Assembly (NCBI GenBank): GCA_040223695.1
Contig: JAVKFU010000015.1
Location: forward strand, 106,534-170,533
DNA: 64,000 bases
Origin: Deltaproteobacteria bacterium
GTDB lineage: Bacteria; Desulfobacterota_D; UBA1144; Nemesobacterales; UBA2774
Direction: 5' to 3'
The notes below the pieces were generated by a model. It was given only the letters and a program-made list of their open reading frames with translations, ran no database searches and was not told the origin of the DNA. The translations under genes were made by a program, and so were the position numbers. This document shows positions 48,444 to 64,000 of the stretch, one piece after another (positions within the stretch are counted from its first letter, which is position 1; every line of letters starts with the position of its first letter).

Positions 48444-50219
48444 ATGTCCAAAAAGCAGTTCTACGATCTTCGGGAGTACATAAATTACCTTGAAGCCATA
48501 GGCGACCTCGTGCGCGTTAAGACCGAAGTGGACCCGATACTGGAGATAACCGAGATATCCTCGCGCGTCATTAAGGAGCGGGGCCCGGCCCTTATTTTCG
48601 AGAACGTTAAGGGCGCCGCGTATCCGCTTGCGATTAACCTCTTCGGCACTGAGGAGAGAGTCGAGCTCGCTCTCGGCAGAAAGCCGAGGGAAGTCGGCGA
48701 GGAGCTGGTCGAGCTCTTTCACAAGGTAAACCCGCCGTCCCTCAAATCATTTTTTTCTGTGCTTCCGAAGGCGTACGACCTTCTGTCCATGAGGACCAAA
48801 AAAGTAAAGCACGGAATCTCGCAGCAGATAGAGGAACGCCCGAATCTCGACAAGCTGCCAGTTATAAAATGCTGGCCGCTCGACGGCGGAAGATTTATCA
48901 CACTGGGGCTGGTTCTGACTCAGGATCCCGTGACGAACAGGAGAAACCTCGGGATTTACAGGCTTCAGATATACGATGAGAAAACCACCGGGATGCACTG
49001 GCATCCACACAAGGGCGGGGCCGCTCATTACCACGAAGCCGGAAAGACTGGCAAGGACCTCGAAGCCGCCGTTGTGCTGGGCGGCGACCCCAAGATGATA
49101 TTCACCGCAATTGCGCCCCTTCCCGAAGGCATGGACGAGCTCGCATTCGCGAGCTACCTGAGGGGTAAGCCGATACCTATGGTAAAGGCGAAGAGCCTAT
49201 CGCTTACGGTTCCGGCAAACGCCGAGTTCATTATCGAGGGCGTAGTGCCCCAGAACGAGCTCAGGGAGGAAGGCCCCTTCGGCGACCATTTCGGGCATTA
49301 TTCGATGGAGGCGGATTTCCCCGTATTTCACCTTAACGAAATAACACACAGGATTAATCCGATCTACCCCGCGACCGTAGTGGGCAAGCCGCCCAAGGAA
49401 GACGTCTTTTTGGGCATGGCTGCGGGGGATATGTTCTCTCCGCTCACAAGAATTATCCACCCGGAGGTCAGGGACATGTGGGCCTATCCGGAGGCGGGAT
49501 TTCACAACCTGCTCGTCGTTAGCGTGGACGAGCGTTACCCGAAGAACGGCATCAAGGCCATGCTTGCCCTGTGGGGCACGGGACAGCTCCTCCTGACCAA
49601 GGTAATGATTACGGTTTCAAGCGACGTCAACCCCAGGGACTGGGACGCCGTTCTTACCGAAATAGGAGAGAACTTCGACCCTGACGAGGATTTTCTGATG
49701 ATTCCCTGGGCCCCGCTCGATACGCTCGATTTTACGAGCGGCAAGCTCAATGTGGGAAGCAAGATGGGTATTAACGCTGTCAGAGAACAGGGCGCAGGAA
49801 GAAAGAAGAGGCAGGTTCCGGCGACGCTCCCCGATCCGAGGGAAAAGCATAAGGAGATTATCGACTGGAGGCTCCTTAAGGGCGGAATCCTCGCAATCAA
49901 GCTCGAGCAGGACCCCAAAGGTATGATAAACAAGATATTCAAAACCCCCGGGTATGAAGATGTCCGAATCATAGCAACCGTGAGCCCCGATATAGACATT
50001 CACGACAACACGGAGCTAATATGGGGTATATTTACCAGGTTCGACCCCTATCTGGACGTTATATTCGAGCGCACGGAGCTCAGAGGCTCCGCCGTCGTGT
50101 ACGGAGGCAGGATGGGGATAGATGCAACGATGAAAAACTGGTATCCTAAGGTAATTGAAATGTCTGAAGACGTAAAGGAGACGGTAACCGAAAGATGGAA
50201 CGAATACTGGAAGACGTAG
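48444..50219 (+). CDS. UbiD-family (prenylated-FMN-dependent) decarboxylase, MqnM-like.
   Basis: UbiD blocks (IFENVKGAAYPLAINLFGTEERV, CWPLDGGRFITLG, HKGGAAHYHE). Confidence 0.8.
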   Translation: MSKKQFYDLREYINYLEAIGDLVRVKTEVDPILEITEISSRVIKERGPALIFENVKGAAYPLAINLFGTEERVELALGRKPREVGEELVELFHKVNPPSLKSFFSVLPKAYDLLSMRTKKVKHGISQQIEERPNLDKLPVIKCWPLDGGRFITLGLVLTQDPVTNRRNLGIYRLQIYDEKTTGMHWHPHKGGAAHYHEAGKTGKDLEAAVVLGGDPKMIFTAIAPLPEGMDELAFASYLRGKPIPMVKAKSLSLTVPANAEFIIEGVVPQNELREEGPFGDHFGHYSMEADFPVFHLNEITHRINPIYPATVVGKPPKEDVFLGMAAGDMFSPLTRIIHPEVRDMWAYPEAGFHNLLVVSVDERYPKNGIKAMLALWGTGQLLLTKVMITVSSDVNPRDWDAVLTEIGENFDPDEDFLMIPWAPLDTLDFTSGKLNVGSKMGINAVREQGAGRKKRQVPATLPDPREKHKEIIDWRLLKGGILAIKLEQDPKGMINKIFKTPGYEDVRIIATVSPDIDIHDNTELIWGIFTRFDPYLDVIFERTELRGSAVVYGGRMGIDATMKNWYPKVIEMSEDVKETVTERWNEYWKT

Positions 50220-51304
50220 AAAGACTCTGTTTCGATAAAGAGCTCTTCCCGATAATAGACAAGGTGGAAAAAGGGCAGCGGCTCACGTTTGAGGACGGAA
50301 TGACCGTTATGAGTACGGCCGATATAAACGCGGTCGGCATGCTGGCCGATTACGTGAAGCGCAAGAAAGACGGGGACAGGGTCTATTTCGTCGTCAACAG
50401 GCACGTCAATCCTACGAATATTTGCGCCATATCGTGCAGGTTCTGCGCCTTCGGAACTACAAAAAAGTCCGCCAATGCCTACGAGCTCTCTCACGAGCAG
50501 ATATTGTCCGTCCTCAGCGATGAGATCAGGGAAGTCCATATAGTCGGGGGACTCCATCCCGATTGGAAGTTCGAGGATTATCTGGACATCATAAAGCTGG
50601 TCAAGGACAACTTTCCCCGGACCCACGTCAAGGCCTTTACCGCCGTTGAGATTGACTGGTTTACGGAGATAAGCGGCCAGAGCCTGGAAGGGGTGCTTGA
50701 GACGCTCAGGGATGCAGGCGTGGACGCGCTCACAGGGGGAGGGGCTGAGATTCTTCATCCGGATGTTAGGAAGAAGATATGCGCCCCCAAGACCGTAGCC
50801 ACGAGGTGGGAGGAGATTCACAGGCTCGCCCACAGCATGGGCATTCCCACAAACGCAACCATACTCTACGGACATATCGAAGAGCCTTTCCACGTTGTCG
50901 ATCATTTCGAGAGACTCAGGAACGTCGAGGACGAATCCCCGGGCTTCTTCGCCTTTATTCCTGTGCTGTTCCAGCCGGAAAATACCGGGCTCAAGAAGCA
51001 GGTGAAGTTCTTCCCCGCCTCCTATGACCTTAAGGTACACGCGCTGGCCAGGCTTTATCTCGACAACTTCCCTCATATCAAGTCCTACTGGATTACGCTC
51101 GGCGAGAAGATGGCCCAGGTTGCGCTCCACTACGGATGCAGCGACGCCGACGGCACTATAATGCGGGAGAAGATAATCCACGACGCGGGCGCTCCGTCAG
51201 AGCTAGGGCACACCCGCGATTTCATGGTCAACATGATAAAGAGCGCGGGCTTCATCCCTGTAGAGAGAGACGCCCTCTACAACGAAATCAGGGTTTATAA
51301 CTAG
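50195..51304 (+). CDS. Radical SAM enzyme of the MqnC/MqnE (futalosine pathway) family.
   Basis: CxxxCxxC cluster motif (CAISCRFC) and the CofH/MqnC-like fold. Gene context with mqnP/L/M-like genes. Confidence 0.65.
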   Translation: MERILEDVERLCFDKELFPIIDKVEKGQRLTFEDGMTVMSTADINAVGMLADYVKRKKDGDRVYFVVNRHVNPTNICAISCRFCAFGTTKKSANAYELSHEQILSVLSDEIREVHIVGGLHPDWKFEDYLDIIKLVKDNFPRTHVKAFTAVEIDWFTEISGQSLEGVLETLRDAGVDALTGGGAEILHPDVRKKICAPKTVATRWEEIHRLAHSMGIPTNATILYGHIEEPFHVVDHFERLRNVEDESPGFFAFIPVLFQPENTGLKKQVKFFPASYDLKVHALARLYLDNFPHIKSYWITLGEKMAQVALHYGCSDADGTIMREKIIHDAGAPSELGHTRDFMVNMIKSAGFIPVERDALYNEIRVYN

Positions 51305-51329
51305 AAATGTAGAACCACCTTTAATCCTT

Positions 51330-52380
51330 AACGTGGTTGGGGATTACCTCTTTTTCCATCGTTTCAGCCAGCGTTACTTTGTCATTACGAGCCGCAAAGC
51401 GGCTCTACAATCCATTTTAGCTAGTCGTCATCCTGAATACATTTCAGGATCTCATCCTTGCCTTTTCTTTATCATTCCTCAATGTTTTTTTATTTTTCGA
51501 CATCACAGAATTGGCGTTTAGAAAATGGTTTATTGAGACGTAAAAATCTTTTTGGGACGATTTAGAGCTAGCGAGGAATCGGACGCCCTTTCCTATTAAG
51601 CAACAATGTAATTAGTCTCGCTTCACTAAACTACAATTCTAATCGCGGTTGGATTAAAAGATTTTAGCCTTAATAAAGCATTTTTAGCCATATTCCGTGC
51701 AGTCGGTGATTTTTGTTTCTTTTCATCAAGGAAAAGAAAATTTAATGTTTTATCTTTTCCTTGTCATTCCCGAGCGCCTTTATCGGGAATCCACTTCTTT
51801 CATTTTCAGGGGGCGTCCTCATGCACGCTCACCCTGAGCCTGTCGAAGGGCGCAATCCGTTAATCCGTCATTGCGAGCCGCAAAGCGGCTCGGCAATCTC
51901 AATTGTGTCATTCTGAATTTATTTCAGAATCTCATCTTTTCAACCCCCTCATCCTGAGCGCACATGAAGTGTGCAGTCGAAAGATGCCATTTCGAGCCAT
52001 TCGATCTACTCAGCATAAACTCCGCGAAAAATCTTCCTTTGTTTTTTACTTCCTTCCCCATATAGAGGGGAACGATTTCGAGCGTGCAAGGAATCGGACG
52101 CCACTGCCTAATAGGCACTTATGCTCTTTAACTCCCGACTCAATGTTCCCTACCTCAAAGCGGGTCAGGATGGGGGTGATCATGCCTCATTCCTCCTGAG
52201 TCCAATCGAAGGGTGTCCCTTTTCCATACTCCTCAGTCAACCCTACATAGTCATTACGAACCGCAAAGCGGCGCAGCAATCTCATCTTTTTAATCCCTTC
52301 ATCCTGAGCCCGGTCGAATTCTGGTTTAAGAGCAAATCAGAAGCAAGGGATGAGGAAGTTTATACCTGTTAATTTATAGT
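51330..52380. repeat. Intergenic array of composite hairpin-repeat units (REP/MITE-like), about 1 kb.
   Basis: Repeated modules: A = GTCATT(A/G)CGAGCCGCAAAGCGGCTC..GCAATCTC (51381, 51867, 52250). B = GTCAT(C/T)CTGAA-loop-TTCAG(G/A)ATCTCATC (51426, 51904). C = CTCATCCTGAGC..GTCGAA (51822, 51946, 52170, 52300). D = AGGAATCGGACGCC..CCTAAT (51571, 52088). Stems carry compensatory substitutions. Confidence 0.8.
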
Positions 52381-52382
52381 TT

Positions 52383-53327
52383 TTATTCTAGCGGCGTGTC
52401 ATCCATGTTCGCCCATTCAGCCATCGAACCGTCGTAAACTCTTGCGGGCGTATAACCCATCAGCTCAAGGGCAAAGGCCACGAATGTAGCGCGCACGGCG
52501 GCCTGGCAGTGGGTTACAATGTTTCTATTTCCGTCTACATCCGCCTTGCTAAGTATGGATTTTATTTCGTCCGCTGACCTGAATTTTCTTACCCCTTCGC
52601 TGTCATTTGAGTTCTCAAGGAAAAGATTCCACTCTAAATGGCTGGCTCCGGGAATATGTCCCACCCTTTTATTGCCGTGAGCAGCGCGCCCGAAATATTC
52701 ATCCTCGGAACGAACATCCAGTATTTGAACTTCCTGGTCCTTGTATTGTTTTATCAATTGGTCCTGCGTGATCATCCTGTCAGGACGTGGTGTCAGACTA
52801 ACCGGGTCTTCCACTTCGCCGGGCTTGGAGTTAATGAAGCTGATCGGTAAACCGGATGATACCCAATTCTGCCACCCGCCGTCCAGAATTTTCGCGTTCT
52901 GAAATCCGTAGTATCTGAGGACCCACCATAGACGGGATGCAAAGATTGAACCCCATTCGTCGTAAAGAACTACGGTCGAATTCGCACCGATTCCAAGCTC
53001 GGCAAGCAGTTTCTCAAATTCGCTCTCATTCGCGACAAACAGGCTTTGATTCCCATCCTGATCTATGCTTTTGACATACGCGTGTCCGGGACGGCAAACC
53101 GCGCCGGGTATGTGTGCTCGTGTGTAAGAGTAATATTCCCACGGGCAGTCAACTATAACCACGTCGGGCTCATCCCCATGCTCCGCGAGCCATTGAGTGC
53201 TTACCAGTATTTCCGGATTCGGATAGTTCATTATCTTTTCTTCCAATGTTTCTCCCGGGACAAAGCTGCTGCCCGGCCTGGATACATTTCCAATTTTCAT
53301 TCTATCAATATTGCGGATCGAATGCAA
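52383..53327 (-). CDS. Two-domain rhodanese sulfurtransferase (thiosulfate/3-mercaptopyruvate sulfurtransferase).
   Basis: Tandem rhodanese domains and a catalytic Cys loop (HCQAAVRA). The true start is probably the internal MNYPNPEIL at about 53231. Confidence 0.75.
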   Translation of the reverse strand: MHSIRNIDRMKIGNVSRPGSSFVPGETLEEKIMNYPNPEILVSTQWLAEHGDEPDVVIVDCPWEYYSYTRAHIPGAVCRPGHAYVKSIDQDGNQSLFVANESEFEKLLAELGIGANSTVVLYDEWGSIFASRLWWVLRYYGFQNAKILDGGWQNWVSSGLPISFINSKPGEVEDPVSLTPRPDRMITQDQLIKQYKDQEVQILDVRSEDEYFGRAAHGNKRVGHIPGASHLEWNLFLENSNDSEGVRKFRSADEIKSILSKADVDGNRNIVTHCQAAVRATFVAFALELMGYTPARVYDGSMAEWANMDDTPLE

Positions 53328-53424
53328 TCTGGTAACTGTGCCGGGAGAAGCGGCACCTTTAAAACAAACAAAGCCCCTACGGCAATCCCATCTTTTTTTC
53401 TCCTACTCCGATATGCCCAACATT

Positions 53425-53510
53425 GTCATTGCGAGGTTGCGAAGCAACCGCGGCAATCTCATCCTTTCAACCCCCTCATCCTAGTAGTGAGCCTGTCGAA
53501 CTATCGATGG
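53425..53510. repeat. Solo copy of repeat modules A and C.
   Basis: GTCATTGCGAGGTTGCGAAGCAACCGCGGCAATCTCATCCTTTCAACCCCCTCATCCT..GCCTGTCGAAC. The A-hairpin stem is replaced by GGTTGC/GCAACC, so structure is conserved rather than sequence. Confidence 0.75.
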
Positions 53511-53604
53511 ATGTCATTCCCCTTCCTTCGTAAAAATAAAAATTCCACTTGCAAATACGAGTATTTTAATTAATCCTTTTGTCATAACAGGGGGACACTA
53601 AAAC

Positions 53605-53931
53605 ATGAAAAACAAGATCAGACTACTTTCTTTCCTTGCGGTATTCGTTCTGCTGGTTTCAGGCGGAATATTCTTTGCGACAAATCAACCGGCCGAGTCT
53701 CAGCAGCCCGAAGTGTTAAGTTTTACAGGCATGGACCTCGAGCAGGATATGAATTTCCTCACCGGATTCACATCCGGCCCTGATATTGTCGTAGCCAAGA
53801 AGAGTTGCGGCGACGAAACCTGCTCCGCCAATCAGTGCTGCTGCCTGAACATAGACACAGGGGCTCAGTGCTGCAGGCCGAAAGTCGAGGACAACTGCAT
53901 CGAGTCGTGTAAGAAAAGCGAGCCGTGTTAG
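53605..53931 (+). CDS. Secreted cysteine-rich mini-protein.
   Basis: Sec signal peptide, then a C-terminal 45-aa domain with 10 Cys (SCGDETCSANQCCCLNIDTGAQCCRPKVEDNCIESCKKSEPC). Confidence 0.5.
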   Translation: MKNKIRLLSFLAVFVLLVSGGIFFATNQPAESQQPEVLSFTGMDLEQDMNFLTGFTSGPDIVVAKKSCGDETCSANQCCCLNIDTGAQCCRPKVEDNCIESCKKSEPC

Positions 53932-54095
53932 AGCGTGTAAATTTGTAATCACTGTAATATTAATACTTTGACCAACTATTATTAATTTATCCTATCCACT
54001 ATAGTATTGACTATCTGATTGTAATTCATATACAATCGAAATAAGAATTACTATATTTTTATCTTATTGTTATATCATGTGAGTAAGAGTCACAG

Positions 54096-55763
54096 ATGAT
54101 TAAAAGTATTCGGCTAAAATTCGGTAGGGCTCTAGGTCTGCCAGCAGAAGTTATTAGTACGACACCGGTAACCGTGTTTGTAGGCCCTAATAATTCGGGG
54201 AAAAGTAAAGTCTTAGATGAGATAAATCAATTTTGTCGCAATGGGCAAAAAAATAATTTAAATTTGATACTTGACCAAATTGAATTTGAGTCTTTCTCCG
54301 AACAAGTTGCTGAAATTAAAATAAAAAATAATTTGCTCACACCTAAACTTGGTGAATCTGTTTATTCCGATCATATAATAATTGGAAAGAAAGGTGTACG
54401 AAATCAGGTAAACAAGAAACAATTACTTGAAGCGTTCGCAAACCCAAATGCTAGGTCCCAACAATTTTGTCCTTGGTATTTAGCTTTTAATACTCTTATT
54501 CTAGATGGGAAAAATAGAATTAATCTCATAAATGAACAAGAAGCTGGTGATTTACAACATCCCCAAACCAGTTTTCAGGTTTTATTTTCGGATGATTCAA
54601 AGAGACAAGAAGTCAGAAGGATTATATTCGATGCTTTTGGCTATTATTTTGTAATTGATCCTACAAAGTTAGGACGTTTTAGGCTGAGGCTGGCATACTA
54701 TTATCCACAAGACATAAGGCAAGAGCGAGGTATTGATGAAGAAGCTGTGTCCTACCATTCAAAGGCCATGCCTATAGACGCGACGAGTGATGGGGTCAAA
54801 GCATTTACTGGTATTATAACTGAGATAATTGCTGGTGATCCGGTTGTATTATTGATTGACGAGCCAGAAGCATTTTTACATCCTGCCCTATCTTTCAAAT
54901 TAGGAAAAGAAATCGCTCGAGCTAGTTCTAAGTCTGAAAAAAGACTTTTCATTTCAACACATAGTACTAATTTTGTCATGGGATGTATTCAATCAGGCGC
55001 ACCAGTGACTATTGTAAGATTAACTTACCGTAACAGTTCTGCTACTGCTAGAATACTGCCACAAGATGATATTTTGAGGTTGATGAGGAATCCATTGTTA
55101 AGATCAACAGGGGTTTTGGCAGGACTTTTTTATGAATTTATAGTTGTTACTGAGTCCGATTCAGACCGTGCCTTTTATCAAGAAATTAATGAACGTTTAA
55201 TTTTGAATGATCCTGATAGAGGGATACCAAATTGTTTATTTTTAAATGCACAGAATAAACAAACAATACACACAATTATACGCCCTTTGCGAGAGCTGGG
55301 TATACCTGCCGCCGGAATTATAGATATAGATATAATAAAAGATGGTGGATCTGTCTGGACGAATTTTCTAAAGTCCGGTTTTGCGCCAGAGCTTGAACAT
55401 GCTTCACTTGCCTCACTACGAAGTTCAGTAAAGAAAAAATTTGAAGAAACTGGAAAAGATATGAAACGTGATGGTGGAGTTTCTGTTCTAAGTCCAACTG
55501 ACAAGGAAGCAGCCAATAATCTGTTTGACAAATTAGCTGATTATGGTCTCTTTGTTGTACGCAAGGGGGAATTGGAATCATGGCTGCCTGGGCTCCAAGG
55601 TGTGGGCCATGGTTCTGACTGGCTTATAGATATATTTGAAAAAATGGGTGAAGATCCCAGCTTGCCTAATTATATGAAGCCCAGTACCAATGACGTATGG
55701 GAATTTGTTGGGCAAATTAAGCACTGGTTGACAAATGCAAATAGAAAAGGAATTCCGTCGTAG
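54096..55763 (+). CDS. OLD-family ATP-dependent nuclease (ABC-type ATPase plus Toprim), class 1-like stand-alone.
   Basis: Walker A GPNNSGKS. Walker B/H-loop LLIDEPEAFLHP. C-terminal Toprim-like acidic motifs (FIVVTESDSDRAF, GIIDIDII). The gene is about 36% GC, against about 50% in neighbours, with AT-rich flanks. Confidence 0.6.
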   Translation: MIKSIRLKFGRALGLPAEVISTTPVTVFVGPNNSGKSKVLDEINQFCRNGQKNNLNLILDQIEFESFSEQVAEIKIKNNLLTPKLGESVYSDHIIIGKKGVRNQVNKKQLLEAFANPNARSQQFCPWYLAFNTLILDGKNRINLINEQEAGDLQHPQTSFQVLFSDDSKRQEVRRIIFDAFGYYFVIDPTKLGRFRLRLAYYYPQDIRQERGIDEEAVSYHSKAMPIDATSDGVKAFTGIITEIIAGDPVVLLIDEPEAFLHPALSFKLGKEIARASSKSEKRLFISTHSTNFVMGCIQSGAPVTIVRLTYRNSSATARILPQDDILRLMRNPLLRSTGVLAGLFYEFIVVTESDSDRAFYQEINERLILNDPDRGIPNCLFLNAQNKQTIHTIIRPLRELGIPAAGIIDIDIIKDGGSVWTNFLKSGFAPELEHASLASLRSSVKKKFEETGKDMKRDGGVSVLSPTDKEAANNLFDKLADYGLFVVRKGELESWLPGLQGVGHGSDWLIDIFEKMGEDPSLPNYMKPSTNDVWEFVGQIKHWLTNANRKGIPS

Positions 55764-55870
55764 TATTATATTCTTTTATTAAGTGTGGGTTTCAAAATTC
55801 TCAAAATCTCCAATTACCCCTTGAAATCCGGCAATTAACCCTTATATTATCCCTGATTAACAATTAAGGC

Positions 55871-56167
55871 ATGGGGTGCAAAATGTTAAATACGGACAAT
55901 TTAGCCCATACGGGCACTAAGTTCTCACGCAGCATATATATCGGGAAGATCAAGAAAACAACCTTGAGCAAGCCCGTCGATGCCCTTAATGTCGGAGAGC
56001 AGGAGCAGTATTCATGCCTCTCCGAGCAGATGAAGTGGGGCAAGGAGCACGGATACAACCTGGTTCTTACCCGTGACAGTAGCGAGATAGACTGCTGGAT
56101 GATAAGAGATTCGTCAATGGACGATCTAAACCCGCTCTTCAAGAAAACGATACTCCAAGTTTTCTGA
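55871..56167 (+). CDS. Hypothetical 98-aa protein downstream of the OLD nuclease.
   Basis: ORF with no recognisable domain. Confidence 0.35.
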   Translation: MGCKMLNTDNLAHTGTKFSRSIYIGKIKKTTLSKPVDALNVGEQEQYSCLSEQMKWGKEHGYNLVLTRDSSEIDCWMIRDSSMDDLNPLFKKTILQVF

Positions 56168-56376
56168 CACTCTAAATAAGCACAGCTAAAAATCACGACA
56201 ACCCTAAAACATAAAAACCTGTAGGTATCCGGGCGGTATATTATTATTCGGAGGCCCTGTGCTGTTTAAACTGACCCAAACCCGATTTTACTTTATCCGG
56301 GCTTTTTGCTATTCTAAAATTGCGAATAAATGTTAATCTTTTTAATAAGTTGTTTTAATTATTCCCGGAGTAATGT

Positions 56377-56703
56377 ATGAAAGAGTATGAAGTGATAATA
56401 GAAAAGCTTAAATCTAGACAGGCGGAGCTCCAGGACAGACTGAATAAAGTCGCGGAGTCGCTCAGGAAAACCCACGCGAAGGATTGGGAAGAGCAGGCAA
56501 TCGAGCGTGAAAACGAGGAAGTGGTCGAAGCGCTCGATGAGAGCATCCGCACCGAATTAAGCCAGATAACAGTCGCACTCGACAGAGTGGAAAAGGACGA
56601 ATACGGCATATGTTCAATTTGTGACGATCCTATCCCCACGGGTCGCCTGGAGGCATTGCCTTACACGGACCGCTGCGTAAGCTGCGCAAGCGAAATGGAG
56701 TAA
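56377..56703 (+). CDS. DksA/TraR-family C4 zinc-finger protein.
   Basis: N-terminal coiled coil and a C-terminal CxxC-N17-CxxC (CSICDD...CVSCAS). RBS GGAG. Confidence 0.65.
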   Translation: MKEYEVIIEKLKSRQAELQDRLNKVAESLRKTHAKDWEEQAIERENEEVVEALDESIRTELSQITVALDRVEKDEYGICSICDDPIPTGRLEALPYTDRCVSCASEME

Positions 56704-57079
56704 TTATTCCACCCCCGCTTTACGGATTTCCCCGCAAACCTGTGTTAGATAATATGACGTTATAGAGGGAGCCTGTTACTCACCCGTCCGGATCTATTGC
56801 ATAAAAATATTCAGGCACCGCTGAATCAAAGACCCGTCCGGAGCTTGGGTTTCATATGGTTCGAACCTGTATCGACGGGCTCCGCTTAAGACTAACCATA
56901 TTAATGTTTCATCCCCATGGTTATTCAATGTGACGGGTACTAACATTTCTTCTTCATTTTATAGATTACTGGCACTATAATCACGGTAAATTTTATCGGC
57001 GACTAAGAGGTATCACTTAAAACCGGCCCTGATTGGAATTGCTGTGATTAATAGATTATATTAGGTTCGATAAAAACGA

Positions 57080-57126
57080 CCCGCTCATCCTGAGCGCACA
57101 CGGAGTGTGCAGTCGAAGGATGCCAC
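57080..57126. repeat. Solo copy of repeat module C, overlapping the 5' end of the transketolase ORF.
   Basis: CTCATCCTGAGCGCACACGGAGTGTGCAGTCGAAGGATGCC. The inner hairpin GCACAC-GGA-GTGTGC compares with GCACA-TGAAG-TGTGC at 51955. Confidence 0.7.
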
Positions 57127-57149
57127 TTATTTTAAGGAGCGAAAATTCC

Positions 57150-58016
57150 GTGGGAGTGACGGACGAACAGGTAGCCTATCTCGAAGATAAAGCGAATCTT
57201 ATAAGGGAAGATATTATTAAAATGCTTGAGGAAGCGGGCTCAGGGCATTCCGCCGGTTCTCTCGGCACCGCCGACATATTTGCCACGCTCTATTTTCATG
57301 TGATGAAGCATGACCCGAAAAATCCCGATTGGGAGGAGCGGGACAGGTTTGTTCTGAGTAACGCTCATATATGTCCCGTGCTCTACGCGACGCTGGCGGA
57401 ATCGGGCTACTTCCCTGTAGAGGAGCTGATGACTCTCAGAAAACTGGGATCGAGGCTCCAGGGCCATCCGCACCGCGGGACGGTTCCCGGACTCGAAGCT
57501 TCGGGCGGCCCGCTCGGACAGGGCATTTCCATCGCGGTAGGAATGGCGGTTGCCGGAAAAATGGACGGTAGCATGTCCGGGGTTTACTGCATGGTGGGGG
57601 ACGGGGAGATGGACGAAGGGCAGGTATGGGAAGCGATAATGTTTGCCGGGAAGAACAGGCTTCATAATTTCACTCTTATAATTGACAGGAACAACATTCA
57701 GATTGACGGCTTCACCGAGGACGTCATGCCGCTTGAGCCCTTAAAGGACAAGCTCGCGTCATTCGGATTTCACGTGATAGAGGTCGGGGGGCACGACATG
57801 AGAACGCTCATTGAGGCGTTTGAGGAGGCGCGGGCGGTATATGAGAAGCCCGTTGTCGTATTGGCGCACACCATACCGGGGAAGGGTGTCGATTTCATGG
57901 AGTTCAAGCCTGAGTGGCACGGTAAGCCGCCTAATAAAGAGGAGGCTGAAAAAGCGCTTGATGAGCTTGACGAGCTGAGATCTCTCGGCGGAAAGATAAC
58001 CTGCGAACATGAGTAA
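57150..58016 (+). CDS. Transketolase, N-terminal (thiamine-diphosphate-binding) subunit of a split enzyme.
   Basis: TPP-binding blocks (GSGHSAGSLGTADIFATLYF, GDGEMDEGQVWEA). GTG start after an AAGGAG RBS. The ATG at 57105 lies inside a repeat element. Confidence 0.75.
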   Translation: MGVTDEQVAYLEDKANLIREDIIKMLEEAGSGHSAGSLGTADIFATLYFHVMKHDPKNPDWEERDRFVLSNAHICPVLYATLAESGYFPVEELMTLRKLGSRLQGHPHRGTVPGLEASGGPLGQGISIAVGMAVAGKMDGSMSGVYCMVGDGEMDEGQVWEAIMFAGKNRLHNFTLIIDRNNIQIDGFTEDVMPLEPLKDKLASFGFHVIEVGGHDMRTLIEAFEEARAVYEKPVVVLAHTIPGKGVDFMEFKPEWHGKPPNKEEAEKALDELDELRSLGGKITCEHE

Positions 58017-59001
58017 TAAACTGAACGATAAAATGCATCTGGCGGCGAATATATTCAACGGACCCGATCAGGTTCCGCAGAGAAACGGCTACGGCGAGGG
58101 GGTCGTGGAAGCCGGCAGGGCGAATGAAAACGTGGTCGTTTTGTGCTGCGACCTTACGGAGTCCACGAGATCGGCCGAGTTCAGGGAAACATTTCCCGGC
58201 AGGTTCGTGGAGATAGGCATAGCCGAGCAGAATATGGCCGGTATAGCCGCCGGAATGGCCTTCTCGGGAAAGATACCGTATATATCATCCTACGCTACGT
58301 TCAGTCCCGGCAGAAACTGGGATCAGATACGTGTCAGCGTCTGCTACAGCATGGCCAACGTCAAGATTATGGGCGCTCACGCCGGTATATCCGTAGGTCC
58401 CGACGGGGCTACGCATCAGGCCATGGAAGACATCGCTATAACGAGATGCCTTCCGAATATGACTGTCATAGTTCCGTGCGATTACCCGGAGGCGAAGAAA
58501 GCAGCGGTATCGATTGCGGAAATGAACGGCCCCGTTTATATGCGTTTTGGAAGGGAAAAGGTTCCGGTTATCACCACCGAAAAAACGCCTTTTCAAATCG
58601 GGCGCGCTGAAACCTACAAGAGGGGAGGGGACGTTACTGTCGTCGCCTGCGGCTCACTCGTGTACGAGGCATTGCTCGCTTCGGATGAGCTTTCCGGGGA
58701 AGGAATAGACGTGAGAGTGATTAATTGCCACACGATTAAACCTATCGACAGTGATACGATTATAAAAGCCGCGGAGGAAACGGGCGCTTTGGTGACCGCC
58801 GAGGAGCATCAGGTTCACGGGGGGCTTGGAAGCGCCGTGGCCGAGGTGGTCTCTCAAAACTGCCCTGTGCCGATTGAATATGTGGCGATGATGGACAGGT
58901 TCGGGGAGTCGGGAGAGCCGGATGAGCTTATGAAGAAGTTCGGCCTTAGCGCGCCCGGCATCGTTTCCGCGGTTAAACGGATCCTCAAGCGGAAGGAATA
59001 A
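58009..59001 (+). CDS. Transketolase, C-terminal (pyrimidine-binding plus C-terminal domain) subunit.
   Basis: Blocks FVEIGIAEQNMAGIAAGMA and the C-terminal domain. Overlaps the N-subunit gene by 8 nt. Confidence 0.8.
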   Translation: MSNKLNDKMHLAANIFNGPDQVPQRNGYGEGVVEAGRANENVVVLCCDLTESTRSAEFRETFPGRFVEIGIAEQNMAGIAAGMAFSGKIPYISSYATFSPGRNWDQIRVSVCYSMANVKIMGAHAGISVGPDGATHQAMEDIAITRCLPNMTVIVPCDYPEAKKAAVSIAEMNGPVYMRFGREKVPVITTEKTPFQIGRAETYKRGGDVTVVACGSLVYEALLASDELSGEGIDVRVINCHTIKPIDSDTIIKAAEETGALVTAEEHQVHGGLGSAVAEVVSQNCPVPIEYVAMMDRFGESGEPDELMKKFGLSAPGIVSAVKRILKRKE

Positions 59002-59274
59002 CTATTTACATAAGTTTAATCCCGTTTCTGATTAAACATCCCGCCTCTAAAGCTTCCTTAATATATTACTTGCCTTAAATGAGTTCTTCACGACAACCGG
59101 AACGAACTTATTGAAATTTTAAACAGAGGTAATTTATTCTGGTGGATTTCCTTGCTGAATTCGACATTCTTCGGATGACGTTCGATTTCCTGGTCCGTCG
59201 AGCCGGTTATGCCGACGGGTTTCTTTCGTTTACGCATGTTCATAGGGGTTAAACTTACGGAGCCCGGCCGGAAT

Positions 59275-59829
59275 TTATTCAGGCGGGCTTATCTTATACC
59301 ATATGTTTTTCTGATACCCCACCGGGTCGGCATCGATAATCTTCTTGACGATTTCGGGCTTTGACCCTTTACATTTCCATTCATATACAGTTGAGCGGCC
59401 GGAGGCGTAAGCGGGGATGAATTCTGCGTTTGGATTGTCTTTACAGTAGTCGGTCATTCCCTTATTGGGGTTTTTGCTCGTGTCGGCCTTTTCTGTACAG
59501 GGCAGGTTTGCCCCCACGTTGCACGCGTAAACCCTGCCGTCCATGCAGCGCCAGTATGTGCCCCTCTTAAACACGTCCGTAGGGGCTGATTCCGGCGAGC
59601 CGAATTCTTTTTTCAACCCTTCCGCGATTGACTCAGGAACAGCGGGTCCCTTATATTCCGGGCCGGGTGAATCGACGGTTCCGGCAGCCTCGCAGTACGC
59701 AAAGGGGTCGTCGTATGTCTTCCCGCTCATGTCCGCTTTTTCCTCTGAGCTGCAGGATAAGATTGTTACAGCGATTAAAACCGGAAAGATAAGTATAAAT
59801 TGATTCAATCTGGATTTCATTTTTCTCAC
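59275..59829 (-). CDS. Lipoprotein of unknown function.
   Basis: Signal peptide with lipobox (ILSCS). Cys-containing soluble domain. No recognised family. Confidence 0.45.
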   Translation of the reverse strand: MRKMKSRLNQFILIFPVLIAVTILSCSSEEKADMSGKTYDDPFAYCEAAGTVDSPGPEYKGPAVPESIAEGLKKEFGSPESAPTDVFKRGTYWRCMDGRVYACNVGANLPCTEKADTSKNPNKGMTDYCKDNPNAEFIPAYASGRSTVYEWKCKGSKPEIVKKIIDADPVGYQKNIWYKISPPE

Positions 59830-60043
59830 CTTCTGGTTCAGTTTTAACGGATATTTTACCCTGCTTAAATCATCTCAATTCAATTATAAAGGATAAAGTA
59901 AATATTTCTAATCCCAATTTTTAAATATAGACCTCTCTATCTGATCGAATCATGGTCAGCATACCTCAATACAAAAAAGAAAGTTTGTCGCAGAAGATGC
60001 TTCAAGTATCATATTTTAATAAAATTATACTGATGGTACTACC

Positions 60044-60997
60044 GTGATACAATCATTACCGCTCAGCTGGTCACGAAACGATATTGATCGCCCCGGATTT
60101 GAGTCCGTCTATCTCCCACTGTCCGGGACAGTGTGGGCACACTCGGCGGAAATCCCTCTGGATTATAGTTTTGAACGGGTATTTACCGATTTATGCGCAG
60201 GCTTCGGGGGAAAAATATTAATCAGAGGGTGTAGCGGCGAAATTGCCGGGTTCCTTGCACGGAATGGGTTCGGGATCATAAGGACCGGAGCCGAGGCCGT
60301 AATAGATTTAAAGGACCTGGATAGAGAGCGGCCTTCTGTAAAAGAGCTGGCAAGAAGGGGGATCAGATGGGGAGAGGTGGAGGAAATTCCCTTTACGGGA
60401 TTAAACTCCGAAAGGGTATCCGGGTTTACCGCGCTCACTGCGCACGGCGGCAAGCCGAATTTGAAATATCTTTTCCGGGCAGGATTCGATCGCGCCACGA
60501 GGTGTTTTGTATTCAGGGCCGCCGATGAAGAATGGCTGGGTGTAGTTACCGTTTCAACCGTCGCGGAATCTTGTGCCCACACTGAGATGATTCTAAGGCA
60601 TAAAAAAGCCCCTGTGGGAGTTATGGAGGCCCTCTTCACCGGGGTAATGAATATTCTAAGAGAGGACGGCTACGAGGAGTTCAGCCTGGGCGAGGTGCCG
60701 TTTATAACCCCTCGAGCGCTCGGTTCTCATATTGGGTCTTCCAGCGATTCCCTTAAACAAAAAATGCTGTTTAGAGCGGGACGAGCTCTCAAATTCGCGT
60801 TTGATTACAAAGGTCTCTTTCGGTTCAAAAATAAATTTAATCCCGAATGGAGGCCCGTTTACGTCTGCGCGAACCCCGAGCTTTCCCTTTTAGCTCTGGC
60901 TGATCTGTTCATTGTAAGCCGCTACCTCGAGCTGTCACGCTCTGAATTGATATCTAACATCAAAGGCTATAACCCTTTATCCTCGACGTTTGGCTGA
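60044..60997 (+). CDS. Stand-alone DUF2156 protein (aminoacyl-phosphatidylglycerol synthase / MprF C-terminal catalytic-domain-like).
   Basis: C-terminal signature GLFRFKNKFNPEWRPVY typical of the lysyl-PG synthase catalytic domain. No flippase TM domain is present. Confidence 0.55.
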   Translation: MIQSLPLSWSRNDIDRPGFESVYLPLSGTVWAHSAEIPLDYSFERVFTDLCAGFGGKILIRGCSGEIAGFLARNGFGIIRTGAEAVIDLKDLDRERPSVKELARRGIRWGEVEEIPFTGLNSERVSGFTALTAHGGKPNLKYLFRAGFDRATRCFVFRAADEEWLGVVTVSTVAESCAHTEMILRHKKAPVGVMEALFTGVMNILREDGYEEFSLGEVPFITPRALGSHIGSSSDSLKQKMLFRAGRALKFAFDYKGLFRFKNKFNPEWRPVYVCANPELSLLALADLFIVSRYLELSRSELISNIKGYNPLSSTFG

Positions 60998-61162
60998 TCC
61001 GCATATATTTTGAATCACATAATTAAAACAGCTATATAATTAATATATTCTCGTAAAACATCTGTATTAATTATTCTAGCTTGACAGATTAATAGTTGAT
61101 ACATCTTTATGGTTTTCAGGGTGGCGGAAGTTATTTTTTATAACTGCATTATTGGAGGATGA

Positions 61163-64000
61163 ATGAGACTAACCGCTAAAGCTCTATTATCTCTATTGGT
61201 TTTTCTTGTTGCTTTTGGTTCTTGCGATACCGATAATAATAAAATTAATAACGGGCCTCTGCCTGCCGATCCGAACGAGTGGGTGTGTGTAGACTCGCTT
61301 GCGGGCGCGACCCTGGAGCAAATTGATCAGTTTTGCCAGAGCTTTTCTAATGCCGGAGACCCTGTCCCCGGATTTTTACAAAACCCTCCGCCCCTGTCTG
61401 AGCTGGATCTTAAGAATATATACGATGCCGAGCTTCAGGCCTTTGCCAGAGACAGGGTCTATGCAGCAGAGCTCGGTTGGGTAAGCGATATGAATTGGCG
61501 TATGACGGGCCCCTATGTCGGCGAAATAGGGAGCGGAGAGAGTTTCGGTGTACATCCCGCCGTAAGAATTTATTACTCTCCCGAGGTTATTGACTGGCTT
61601 TGTAATGACGGCGCGGGAGAGATTCCCGACGGCGCTATGATTGTAAAGGAGATGCATTCGATTAACGAGGAGCTCGATATAGCCCTCGATAGCGAGGGCT
61701 GTATGGTTATTAACGCCGATGTTGAGCCCGACTCATGGACGATAATGGTCAAGGAGAGCGGTGAGTCGCACGACGGATGGTACTGGGCCGGCTATTCGGT
61801 CGTCCAGGACCCTGTTACCTTCGCCTGGGAAATAGGGAACCCTCCAATTTTTGATGCGACTGCGGTAACGGGGGAGGAGTTTTTTGGCGGGGAAATAATA
61901 CCTTCTTCACCCAACCCCCTCTGGTATCCGACCGGTTATGTATTCTCCAGCACAAACAAGATTCCCGATGTCATATTCCCTTACAGTGAGTACGGAAACT
62001 ACTGCGTCAATTGTCATGCCTCCGCTGTAAGCGAGTTAACGTTTTCCTCTCTGGATAATGTTTTAACTCCGGGAATAGAGTACAAGCTCTTTACATCCGA
62101 TGAGCCCGGCAAAACATTTCCCGACGAATTGTTCGATGGGCTTGTTCACACTCCCGGTATCATAGCTCTGATTACTCAGGATTCGGCTTCGATAGCGGGC
62201 CTGACGGCAACTCGCGGGAACGGCGAAGTAGAAGGTTATGATTCTCCGTTTTCCGACCCTCTTCCGGAGCCTACGTCTCGGTTCTTGGAGTTTTATAATC
62301 AACTGGATGAAGTGAGTTTCCCAGAGGCCTGGATGCTCCGTCTGCCCGCTCAGACCTACGATCACGTAGTCTCGGCATCTACAGGTCCCGACCAGTTTAT
62401 TACGTCGGACCAGTGTATCGGTTGTCACGACGCTACTTACTCAAACGCGTCCTTTCCGAATATGATTCTGGAGAGAGACGTGAACGGCACGACTGAATTA
62501 ATCAATCTTTCTCCTTACGGAGAATGGAGCGCGTCGCCCATGGGCCTGGCCGGACGTGATCCCATCTTCTTTTCCCAGCTCCAGAGCGAGACAAACAACC
62601 TGCCTGAACTCACCACTTGCATCGAGAATACCTGCCTTCACTGTCACGGCGTGATGGGGCAGCGGCAGCTGGCTATAGATACTCCCGGTCAGGATACGGA
62701 GGGTTGCGAGGAATTATTCGCTATAGCCCCTCCTCCCGGAGTTCCGTTCGGGAAGCCCTTCAGCCTCGACATGGTGACCCAGTGGCCGGACTCTCCGAGC
62801 AATAAAGACCAGAAATACGGAGCGCTCGCCAGGGACGGAATTTCCTGCACCGTGTGTCACCATATTTCGGATGTCGATCTCGGACAGGAAGAGACTTTCA
62901 CCGGGAATTTTGTAACCGGGCCTCCTGATGAGATATACGGCCCTTATGAGGATTCGACCATAGTTCCCAAGCCGATGGAGAACGCTATCGGTATTACACC
63001 TAGGTTTGCCGATTACTTCGTAAGCGGGGACGCGTTCAGCTCCGATACCTGCGGGAGTTGTCATAACATCCTCCTTCCGATCATAACGAACGAGGGCGAG
63101 ATAATAGGCGCCAGCTACGAGCAGACGACACACCTTGAATGGGTTAACAGCGATTTTGCCCCGGGCGGCTCTGATTTCAAATCTTGCGCTGACTGCCATA
63201 TGCCGACGCATTACATGGGTGAAGACCTTTCATTTAAAATTGCTAATATAGAATCAAGCGATTTTGCTCCCACGACGAACCGTCTCCCCGATGCCGATAT
63301 TACTTTAACGGAGCGTGATACGTTCGCCCGCCACTCGCTACACGGTCTTAATATTTTCATCAATCAGATGTTTCAGCAGTTCCCCGTGATACTGGGCGCG
63401 CGGCAGATCGACTATATGACGGGAACCGCGACGGTCCCTTCACTGATTACCGGGCAAAAGTCCATGATAGAAATGGCTCAAAACGAGACAGCCGCCATAA
63501 AGGTACAGGAGCTGGAGATAACCCCGGAGGGTGAGTTGCGTGCCGTTGTTGAAGTCGTTAACCTCGTAGGACACTACCTTCCGTCCGGAGTAGGGTTCAG
63601 GCGGATATTCATTGAGTTCCTTGTCAGAGACATAGACGGCAATGTGCTATGGGCTTCCGGGCGTACGAATGAGCTGGGCGCAATTCTGGACGGCACCACC
63701 GACGAAGTTCTTCCCAGTGAGGAGCCGGTTAAATTCCCGGACGCGCCGTTTCAGCCCCATTACCAGGTCATAACGCAGCAGGACCAGGTCCAGATATATC
63801 AGGAGCTTATTAAAGATTCCGCCGGTAACCTGACTACAAGTTTTTTAAGGCGCGTCGAGGACGTAAAGGATAACCGCATTAGACCGAAAGGTTATAATCC
63901 CGAACTTTTCATAACCTTCTTTGACTCGCCGTTTATTAACGCGCTTGCCGAAACACACGGCCAGGCCGCGTCCGACCCCTATTACACCGACCCAGAGCTT
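61163..64000 (+). CDS. Large multihaem c-type cytochrome lipoprotein, 3'-partial (runs off the window). Absent from the supplied ORF track.
   Basis: GGAGG RBS, ATG at 61163 and a lipobox (VAFGSC). The frame is open for 946 codons to the window end. It has six CxxCH motifs (CVNCH, CIGCH, CLHCH, CTVCH, CGSCH, CADCH). Confidence 0.7.
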   Translation, partial: MRLTAKALLSLLVFLVAFGSCDTDNNKINNGPLPADPNEWVCVDSLAGATLEQIDQFCQSFSNAGDPVPGFLQNPPPLSELDLKNIYDAELQAFARDRVYAAELGWVSDMNWRMTGPYVGEIGSGESFGVHPAVRIYYSPEVIDWLCNDGAGEIPDGAMIVKEMHSINEELDIALDSEGCMVINADVEPDSWTIMVKESGESHDGWYWAGYSVVQDPVTFAWEIGNPPIFDATAVTGEEFFGGEIIPSSPNPLWYPTGYVFSSTNKIPDVIFPYSEYGNYCVNCHASAVSELTFSSLDNVLTPGIEYKLFTSDEPGKTFPDELFDGLVHTPGIIALITQDSASIAGLTATRGNGEVEGYDSPFSDPLPEPTSRFLEFYNQLDEVSFPEAWMLRLPAQTYDHVVSASTGPDQFITSDQCIGCHDATYSNASFPNMILERDVNGTTELINLSPYGEWSASPMGLAGRDPIFFSQLQSETNNLPELTTCIENTCLHCHGVMGQRQLAIDTPGQDTEGCEELFAIAPPPGVPFGKPFSLDMVTQWPDSPSNKDQKYGALARDGISCTVCHHISDVDLGQEETFTGNFVTGPPDEIYGPYEDSTIVPKPMENAIGITPRFADYFVSGDAFSSDTCGSCHNILLPIITNEGEIIGASYEQTTHLEWVNSDFAPGGSDFKSCADCHMPTHYMGEDLSFKIANIESSDFAPTTNRLPDADITLTERDTFARHSLHGLNIFINQMFQQFPVILGARQIDYMTGTATVPSLITGQKSMIEMAQNETAAIKVQELEITPEGELRAVVEVVNLVGHYLPSGVGFRRIFIEFLVRDIDGNVLWASGRTNELGAILDGTTDEVLPSEEPVKFPDAPFQPHYQVITQQDQVQIYQELIKDSAGNLTTSFLRRVEDVKDNRIRPKGYNPELFITFFDSPFINALAETHGQAASDPYYTDPEL

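Follow-up and report, generated by a model that had tools for sequence, protein, structure and literature searches.

A mosaic array of hairpin repeats beside mqnE that very probably belongs to the CGTC-tagged superfamily of REP elements

The locus studied here raises the question of what a group of related hairpins between two protein-coding genes represents: mobile DNA, sites for recombination or structured RNA. It lies in a 64,000-nt stretch of contig JAVKFU010000015.1 from a Deltaproteobacteria bacterium (assembly GCA_040223695.1; hereafter the window, whose positions serve as coordinates throughout). A non-coding gap of 1.08 kb extends there from the stop of a gene for a radical-SAM enzyme, which databases name aminofutalosine synthase MqnE and not MqnC, to the stop of a rhodanese gene on the minus strand, and it harbours a mosaic array of hairpin units flanked by these two stops (51304 and 52383). 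Ten units are found inside the array and three more at two sites further downstream (53424-53504 and 57083-57124), and 13 of 13 are placed on the plus strand. They are designated A1-A4, B1-B2, C0-C5 and E, and the array contains in addition the spacer modules D1-D2 (Table 1). A preliminary description had left the choice between elements of the REP/BIME type (repetitive extragenic palindromes and bacterial interspersed mosaic elements) and structured RNA. The REP assignment holds, whereas the alternation of BIMEs is absent and the RNA alternative found little support. We consider it highly probable that the gap is occupied by a mosaic of palindromic, REP-type repeats of the CGTC-tagged superfamily, which would be non-autonomous mobile DNA hairpins.

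A common frame of the CGTC type

A, B and C are all sub-types of one frame, with D as an array-specific spacer that was found in this array only. In this frame, an unpaired tag (either (C/T)GTC or CCTC) precedes the stem, which begins with an A-T and then a T-A pair and continues with variable ones; the stem encloses a loop or an inner hairpin, and a 3-nt tail, CTC or CCA, comes last. The stem is ATTGC/GCAAT in the A and ATCCT/AGGAT in the C units, and the stems of B and E (Table 1) follow the same scheme.

In earlier work (Di Nocera, De Gregorio & Rocco 2013, BMC Genomics 14:522; PMC3733652), REPs were divided into two superfamilies, one with a GTAG and one with a CGTC tag. CGTC-tagged elements are defined by the tag CGTC, often replaced by TGTC or CCTC, by complementary A-T at stem positions 1 and 2, by stems of 8-9 bp with loops of 4-5 nt, and by an unpaired 3-nt tail that is mostly CCA. 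The members include dRS3 of Neisseria as well as RPE-4 and RPE-6 of Rickettsia, the elements occur without associated transposase genes, and their copying mechanism was left open (PMC3733652). The window units share the 5' tag with these elements, since CGTC opens B1 and A2, TGTC four other units and CCTC three C-type copies, with degenerate tags (GCTC, AGTC, CTTC) in the remaining ones; among 54 distinct units from metagenomes (here and below, metagenome values refer to the matches listed) the base preceding GTC is T in 46. They also share the A-T/T-A stem opening, which is present as AT...AT in the intact A, B and E units and in C1 and C5, and lost in C0, C3 and C4. The metagenome alignment is uninformative in this regard, because the search pattern fixed those positions. 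Stem and loop sizes agree for B1 and B2 (8 bp and 5 nt), E combines 8 bp with a loop of 9 nt, the A units have a bulged stem of 12 bp, and the C units a stem of 5 bp with an internal loop. A1 and E have CCA as their 3-nt tail, and A2, A3, A4, B1 and B2 have CTC. Further common features are the location in intergenic regions between convergent or co-directional genes, the presence of several sub-types per genome and the lack of an associated transposase: the ten flanking ORFs (open reading frames; 46.5-59.8 kb) scanned with Pfam include no transposase, recombinase or IS110-like gene. Based on these features, B1 and B2 fit the published definition exactly, B1 with the canonical CGTC-REP geometry, and A and C represent bulged and internal-loop variants that the published search would miss. 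According to its authors, bulged members did escape that search (PMC3733652).

Stems are constrained to pair across unrelated genomes

The C-type unit follows the motif GTCAT-NNN-GA-S-C-(GNAG or inner hairpin)-T-S'-GA-N'N'N'-ATCTCATC, and copies were collected from two sources. A scan of a genome collection (one genome per species) with the general inter-unit linker pattern, which is matched by the B2-C1 and A3-C3 linkers, returned 98 loci, of which chance would account for about 16 and many fall into coding regions; roughly half of them are genuine repeats, and none carries the linker of this lineage. A metagenome scan in which NNN and S were left free matched at least 120 contigs and provided the 54 distinct units mentioned above, and the lineage-specific linker matched zero metagenome contigs.

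When only the 5' half GTCAT-NNN-GA-S-C was used as an anchor, matching 3' halves were found in the 98 genome loci for at least nine different triplets (CCT/AGG, TCT/AGA, TCC/GGA, TTC/GAA, GTC/GAC, CCC/GGG, GCT/AGC, GGT/ACC and TGC/GCA), and GAGC..GTCGA changes over to GACC..GTGGA. Among 49 distinct genome units, the free positions (four positions; the patterns fix unpaired bases only) were 92% Watson-Crick paired compared with 51 +/- 4% in a shuffle control, in which the 3' halves were exchanged among units. The 54 metagenome units gave 94% compared with 52 +/- 3%; they contain 12 perfectly complementary triplet pairs, and the S/S' pair is 40 times G-C, 14 times C-G and never G-G or C-C. In the metagenome alignment, double changes occurred in all four free pairs (4/4), changes on both sides were counted in 70 cells versus 20.9 +/- 3.6 after shuffling, the observed covariation score was reached by 0 of 500 shuffles, and pairing fell from 97% to 31-54% when the partner was shifted by one column. 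Collectively, these data show a pairing constraint on the stems that extends over hundreds of copies from unrelated genomes. Selection on the stems, which had initially been proposed from the window copies, is thus borne out for the family as a whole by counts run with the copies of other genomes.

The window copies themselves present a more mixed picture than the initially proposed compensatory changes in intact stems. B1 and B2 differ by a true double change from C-G to T-A, and the inner stem of A has undergone a multi-base swap (CCGC/GCGG vs GTTGC/GCAAC) with pairing and bulged G retained, but the supposed compensation in the inner hairpin of C amounts only to a T·G to C-G replacement plus a change in the loop. 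Nor are the stems intact in every copy, as uncompensated mismatches occur in A1, A3, C0, C2, C3 and C4. A2, B1, B2 and E fold well beyond shuffled sequences, either as RNA or as DNA (z -2.5 to -5.9), A1 reaches a good fold via its inner stem only and can be regarded as a decaying copy because of two mismatches in its outer stem, and the fold of A3, C0, C2 and C3 is at shuffle level. The best preserved copies are A2 for the A type and C5 for the C type.

The combination of covariation with decayed copies suggests that pairing is required at the moment of copying, as mobile hairpin DNA predicts. In such a mechanism, the units would be non-autonomous mobile DNA that is copied in the form of folded single-stranded hairpins by an enzyme acting in trans; pairing would be needed while a copy is made, and inserted copies would then decay neutrally. 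The clustered arrays would probably become recombination-prone junctions, as has been proposed for the Neisseria intergenic mosaic elements (NIMEs), and the ends of neighbouring transcripts may be affected incidentally. Arrays often contain truncated 5' half-units, in which GTCATNNNGAGC is succeeded by a short spacer and then by another unit (window 53512-53522; genome loci L056 135-300 and L097 2823-2950); such half-units could result from abortive copying or from deletion at hairpins.

Several observations weigh against this assignment or set the window apart from the published families. In the published CGTC families head-to-head dimers are predominant, head-to-tail arrangement is negligible and clusters are rare (PMC3733652), whereas 13/13 window units are arranged head-to-tail and are clustered; the dimer orientation is, however, an organisational tendency in that study and not part of the definition. 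The A-type (12 bp with bulge) and the C-type (5 bp with a conserved internal loop, G·A/A·G, and either GNAG or an inner hairpin as its loop) are not covered by the published range of stems and loops, the tail is mostly CTC, and the host is probably Dadabacteria-like and therewith outside the five phyla in which the superfamily was catalogued (PMC3733652). Families of this superfamily are dispersed in many copies over a genome, and here copies are located at only three intergenic sites inside 6 kb of the 64 kb, which is sparse for a REP-rich genome. A pattern scan and a permissive tag-plus-hairpin scan of the 64 kb revealed no units beyond these sites; perfect 7/7 matches in the latter were confined to the array, with background in the remaining sequence. 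Metagenome units are oriented sense to the upstream gene in 71 cases and antisense in 33 among the matches listed, as an RNA role likewise predicts. Moreover, an HUH-Y1 motif scan combined with all-against-all ORF clustering near the arrays of the 98 genome loci found no Y1 ORF and no recurrent family, and 98 viral loci gave no transposase or recurrent family and one weak HUH-Y1 motif match; since a transposase was not found, mobility is inferred and not shown. Finally, the short C-type hairpin is no steadier than shuffled sequences (-2.4 kcal/mol, z = 0.2), so that pairing alone does not explain the conservation of the C-type.

The G·A/A·G positions and the GNAG loop are near-invariant across metagenome-assembled genomes (MAGs) labelled Acidobacteriota, Clostridia, Atribacter, candidate phyla radiation (CPR), Opitutales, Bacteroidales and Ignavibacteriae as well as in contigs of the virus database IMG/VR. 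Together with covariation in the absence of stability, this near-invariance suggests that the unit is recognised by a protein rather than serving as a terminator or stabiliser through its stability. It is a rather speculative idea that the C-type unit is read by one specific, widespread protein, either the enzyme mobilising CGTC-tagged REPs or a nucleic-acid-binding factor, with phages as a possible vehicle from phylum to phylum. The sharply defined C-type motif represents a good handle to search for the mobilising enzyme by phylogenetic profiling.

Mobile hairpins compared with recombination sites and RNA

At the level of the array, the NIMEs of Neisseria are the closest analogue. They combine dRS3 palindromes with AT-richer RS spacers into dynamic arrays with a GC wave near variable genes, and were proposed as recombination-prone junctions (Bentley et al. 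2007, PLoS Genet 3:e23; PMC1797815). Long intergenic arrays of short, GC-richer palindromes and AT-richer spacers, a GC wave and variable gene content nearby are found here as well; the ten REP-type units cover 319 nt with 53% GC and the AT-rich spacers 732 nt with 39% GC. Unit E, which has a stem of 8 bp, also shares the arms ATTCCC..GGGAAT with dRS3. In contrast, dRS3 is a 20-bp element with eight central bases (ATTCCC-N8-GGGAAT), whereas E has 13 central bases and the arms of the other units differ; the window contains loops of 5-13 nt, mixed stem types and one repeated spacer family (D), and neither a phage nor a recombinase acting on the sites is evident from the genes scanned at 46.5-59.8 kb. 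The similarity to the REPs and BIMEs of E. coli and to the REPIN-RAYT system (REP doublets forming hairpins and REP-associated tyrosine transposase) comprises short extragenic hairpins with an unpaired 5' tetranucleotide, mosaic arrays and compensated stems. However, the tag is (C/T)GTC and not GTAG, inverted doublets are absent from the window, a RAYT gene (Y1 HUH) was not found near any array examined, and the REPs of BIMEs alternate with regular spacing, whereas the window units have one orientation and irregular spacing.

The analogy with NIMEs leads to the alternative that the hairpins chiefly serve as sites for recombination or integration, used by a site-specific recombinase or an IS110-type enzyme as dRS3 is by phages integrating in Neisseria, and that the arrays both mark places where gene cassettes are exchanged and promote this exchange. 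The best named MqnE homologues (80-85% identity) come from Candidatus Dadabacteria MAGs. The window and four contigs with the 85% homologue share a backbone of ArgJ, RecO, MgtE, UbiA, a flavoprotein, UbiD and MqnE; a variable slot comes next, and beyond it a small protein rich in Cys, a protein of 94 aa, DksA and two transketolase subunits. The slot extends from mqnE to the Cys-rich ORF (window 51305-53604; contig L320 7111-9069) and is occupied by two ABC-transporter genes in the relatives and by the REP array, the rhodanese gene and A4/C4 in the window; between the Cys-rich and the 94-aa ORF, the relatives have nothing and the window has an OLD-family nuclease gene in a patch of 35-39% GC. 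The syntenic 13 kb contain 13 units in the window and none in the relatives, and a third lineage (L325) has different genes again after mqnE. At this single locus, the REP units thus bracket the replaced slot exactly. The closest relatives found lack units at the orthologous locus, and in the window the units enclose a segment of differing gene content. The site is a synteny breakpoint and fits the NIME idea of recombination-prone junctions. Together with the dRS3-like unit E and the NIME-like GC wave, the exact flanking of the rhodanese segment favours a role in recombination, but a recombinase or IS110-like gene is missing among the genes scanned at 46.5-59.8 kb and near the arrays elsewhere, the OLD gene was inserted without bounding units, and with one locus compared the co-location may be coincidence. 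We therefore regard recombination as the chief function as unlikely, albeit with a real chance; as a secondary role it would be compatible with mobile DNA hairpins.

It is still less probable that the units are transcribed along with their flanking genes and act as cis-acting structured RNA, for instance as 3'-end stabilisers, attenuators, processing sites or protein-binding hairpins, with selection on the stems at the RNA level. The strong covariation speaks for this reading, and the internal loop, which is rich in purines (tandem G·A/A·G), is restricted to one strand, as is the GNAG loop. All window units are located on the same strand as mqnE, dksA and tkt, and the sense bias of the metagenome units mentioned above was also seen between co-directional genes (37 sense : 14 antisense among the matches listed). 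However, this bias is absent from the genome loci (20 : 17) and from viral contigs (23 : 26). RNA should tolerate G·U far better than A·C, hence the counts of non-Watson-Crick cells, 7 G·T and 12 A·C in genome and metagenome units (the latter among the matches listed), argue against selection as RNA. Rfam 15 gave zero matches at gathering thresholds in the 64 kb and none of relevance at E <= 10 in 51200-57300. Furthermore, stems are broken in several window copies, the sampled close relatives lack units at the same genes, and a terminator-like hairpin with a T-rich tail is situated 18 nt past the mqnE stop, before the array, which may therefore lie outside the mqn transcript. Mixed orientation, broken copies and the lack of a G·T excess fit mobile DNA hairpins better than functional RNA. 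The orientation relative to local GC skew, which was compared as a probe of single-stranded DNA insertion into the lagging-strand template, was evenly split (23 to 23), and the 8-kb loci are too short for it to be informative.

An array of repeats that are processed as RNA, as in CRISPR or ToxI (type III antitoxin) systems, would share with the locus several short direct-orientation units in a non-coding gap, but here the units vary in sequence and length, spacing is irregular, cas or toxN-like genes are not adjacent, no CRISPR repeat family matches the array, and the same units also occur singly elsewhere, which makes this explanation hardly credible. Judging from the sequence, integron attC sites and a hammerhead-like core were rejected along with CRISPR and ToxI-type arrays, as regular spacing, partner genes or a match to a conserved core were missing. 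The chance that the array is an assembly artefact, i.e. a collapsed or chimeric repeat, appears similarly negligible. Two contigs of the Logan assembly, made independently from the same sample (SRR26209086), end within the region (51730 and 53431), but this assembly reproduces 51274-51730 with a single-nucleotide polymorphism in the B1 loop as the sole difference, and it matches the window at 100% over their overlap from 53431 to 64000. This agreement argues against an artefact for these parts, and 51731-53430 is without independent check.

Array layout, neighbouring genes and wider distribution

The coordinates of the units and of neighbouring features are compiled in Table 1. Modules A to D had been recognised before and were recovered at these places, including four copies of C within the array. 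Repeat finding gave three A copies with 73-80% identity over 49 nt, two B copies with 85%, two D copies with 80% and several C copies. The modules had been thought to recur in shuffled combinations, which is mostly not so: a tandem duplication of about 490 bp, whose copies have diverged (alignment of 51340-51849 with 51826-52380), contains A-B-(C)-D in the same order in both of them, with the order A-B-spacer-D retained and C1 in the second copy only. Hence, the array grew partly through this tandem duplication plus the addition of single units. The A4-C4 linker is the same as the A3-C3 and B2-C1 linkers. Three ORFs called inside the array had been interpreted as translations of the repeats, and the Pfam search matched no family to them; since the array is non-coding repeat DNA, they should be discarded. 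The window contains no tRNA or tmRNA.

Table 1. Hairpin units, spacer modules and neighbouring features in the window
Feature	Position (strand)	Tag	Structure	Tail	Remarks
mqnE	50195-51304 (+)				radical-SAM enzyme
Terminator-like hairpin	51322-51346		hairpin with T-rich tail
Array	51330..52380 (+)				mosaic of ten units
A1	51380..51414 (+)	TGTC	ATTACGAGCCGC-AAA-GCGGCTCTACAAT	CCA	inner 7-bp stem intact, outer stem with two mismatches
B1	51426..51453 (+)	CGTC	8-bp stem ATCCTGAA/TTCAGGAT, 5-nt loop	CTC	DNA fold z = -5.9
D1 spacer module	51545..51640 (+)		core GGGACGATTTAGAGC..AGGAATCGGACGCC at 51554-51602		part of the ~490-bp duplicated block
AT-rich inverted repeat	51727..51763 (+)		CAAGGAAAAGAAAA/TTATCTTTTCCTTG		directly before unit E; Logan contig _1147 ends at 51730
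E	51762..51793 (+)	TGTC	stem ATTCCCGA/TCGGGAAT, 9-nt loop	CCA	missed in the preliminary description
C0	51827..51853 (+)	GCTC	GCTC-ACCCT-GAGC-CTG-TCGA-AGGGC		short C-type copy, partly degenerate
A2	51866..51900 (+)	CGTC	stem of 12 bp, one G bulged, AAA loop	CTC	DNA fold z = -4.95
B2	51906..51933 (+)	TGTC	stem ATTCTGAA/TTCAGAAT, 5-nt loop	CTC
C1	51947..51988 (+)	CCTC	ATCCT-GAGC-(GCACAT GAA GTGTGC)-A-GTCGA-AAGAT		absent from the paralogous position in duplicate copy 1
D2 spacer module	52060..52160 (+)		core 52069-52117		paralogue of D1, 80% identity over the 49-nt core
C2	52185..52215 (+)	CCTC	CCTCATTCCTCCTGAGTCCAATCGAAGGGTG		degenerate C-type copy
A3	52249..52283 (+)	AGTC	inner stem with two mismatches, outer stem with A·C	CTC	decayed; fold z = -0.17
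C3	52297..52322 (+)	CTTC	CTTC-ATCCT-GAGC-CCG-GTCGA		3' arm lost
Rhodanese gene	52383-53327 (-)
A4 solo	53424..53460 (+)	TGTC	inner stem swapped (GGTTGC/GCAACC), same architecture including bulged G	CTC	Logan contig _453 begins inside, at 53431
C4 solo	53474..53504 (+)	CCTC	C-type with 6-nt insertion, degenerate 3' arm
Truncated 5' half-unit	53512..53522 (+)		TGTCATTCCCC
Cys-rich small protein	53605-53931				L320 9070-9372
OLD-family gene	54096-55763				context 53932-55882
C5 solo	57083..57124 (+)	GCTC	outer stem CATCCT/AGGATG, inner hairpin GCACAC-GGA-GTGTGC		dksA-tkt intergenic region

Genuine repeats of this kind were found in MAGs labelled Acidobacteriota/Terriglobia, Atribacter, Clostridia (many arrays), Ignavibacteriae, Bacteroidales, Opitutales and CPR, and same-kind arrays occur in a Clostridia MAG, in Korobacteraceae, in Cryptobacteroides and in a CPR MAG. 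Granulicella rosea gave a single partial match (L028), a candidate unit. In the fetched genome loci, 40 of 55 multi-unit arrays are uniform in orientation. IMG/VR contigs carry up to eight units per contig in a single orientation, and unit-bearing viral contigs encode terminase-, portal- and tape-measure-like proteins, as judged by eye from ORF clusters with no domain search. Three predicted phage contigs (L265, i.e. IMGVR_UViG_3300031555_011079, L259 and L258) contain 5-8 C-type units each, again in one orientation. Phage contigs offer a route of spread between lineages. Hence, CGTC-type REPs extend well past the five catalogued phyla, to contigs labelled Acidobacteriota, Clostridia, Atribacter, CPR and Opitutales, to phage-like contigs and probably to a Dadabacteria-like genome. 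Head-to-tail mosaic arrays resembling NIMEs, once deemed specific for Neisseria, are present in distant lineages, here again at a breakpoint of gene content. For the window itself, the array is of little import as ordinary selfish or structural repeat DNA of a known family. Literal searches of the literature for the repeat sequences returned primer noise only, and the RepRanger paper (PMC12306157) contains nothing specific to the CGTC-tagged family.

The arrays of other genomes show some variations. In a Clostridia MAG (L097 3100-3135 and 3195-3225), some tags can pair through their GTCA with a TGAC located upstream (TGACAGC-NNCG-CTGTCA), which gives an extra small hairpin overlapping the tag. 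In Acidobacteriota and Opitutales loci (L006, L012, L038, L043, L058 and L077), units often form convergent inverted pairs 60-210 bp apart, similar to REPINs or miniature inverted-repeat transposable elements, whereas those of the window run head-to-tail.

Regarding the genes downstream of the array, solo copies had been described as flanking the OLD region and as supplying the start of the transketolase ORF. The copies are present on both sides (A4/C4 and C5), but do not directly abut the OLD gene. The transketolase ORF from GTG 57105 is over-extended into C5, whereas an independent gene call starts at 57150/57151; we read the tkt start as GTG 57151, with a likely AAGGAG Shine-Dalgarno sequence at 57134-57139. 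C5, which ends up 26 nt upstream of this start, is therefore upstream non-coding sequence, and the extended start should be discarded. The OLD-family gene encodes a stand-alone ATPase/TOPRIM nuclease (PADLOC Old, E = 1.6e-19) and is probably a horizontally acquired defence gene. The Cys-rich small protein matched no Pfam family; it is conserved between the lineages with 46% identity, and has a hydrophobic N-terminus and the C-terminal motif CG.ETC...QCCCLNID.G.QCCRP...NC..SCKKS.PC.

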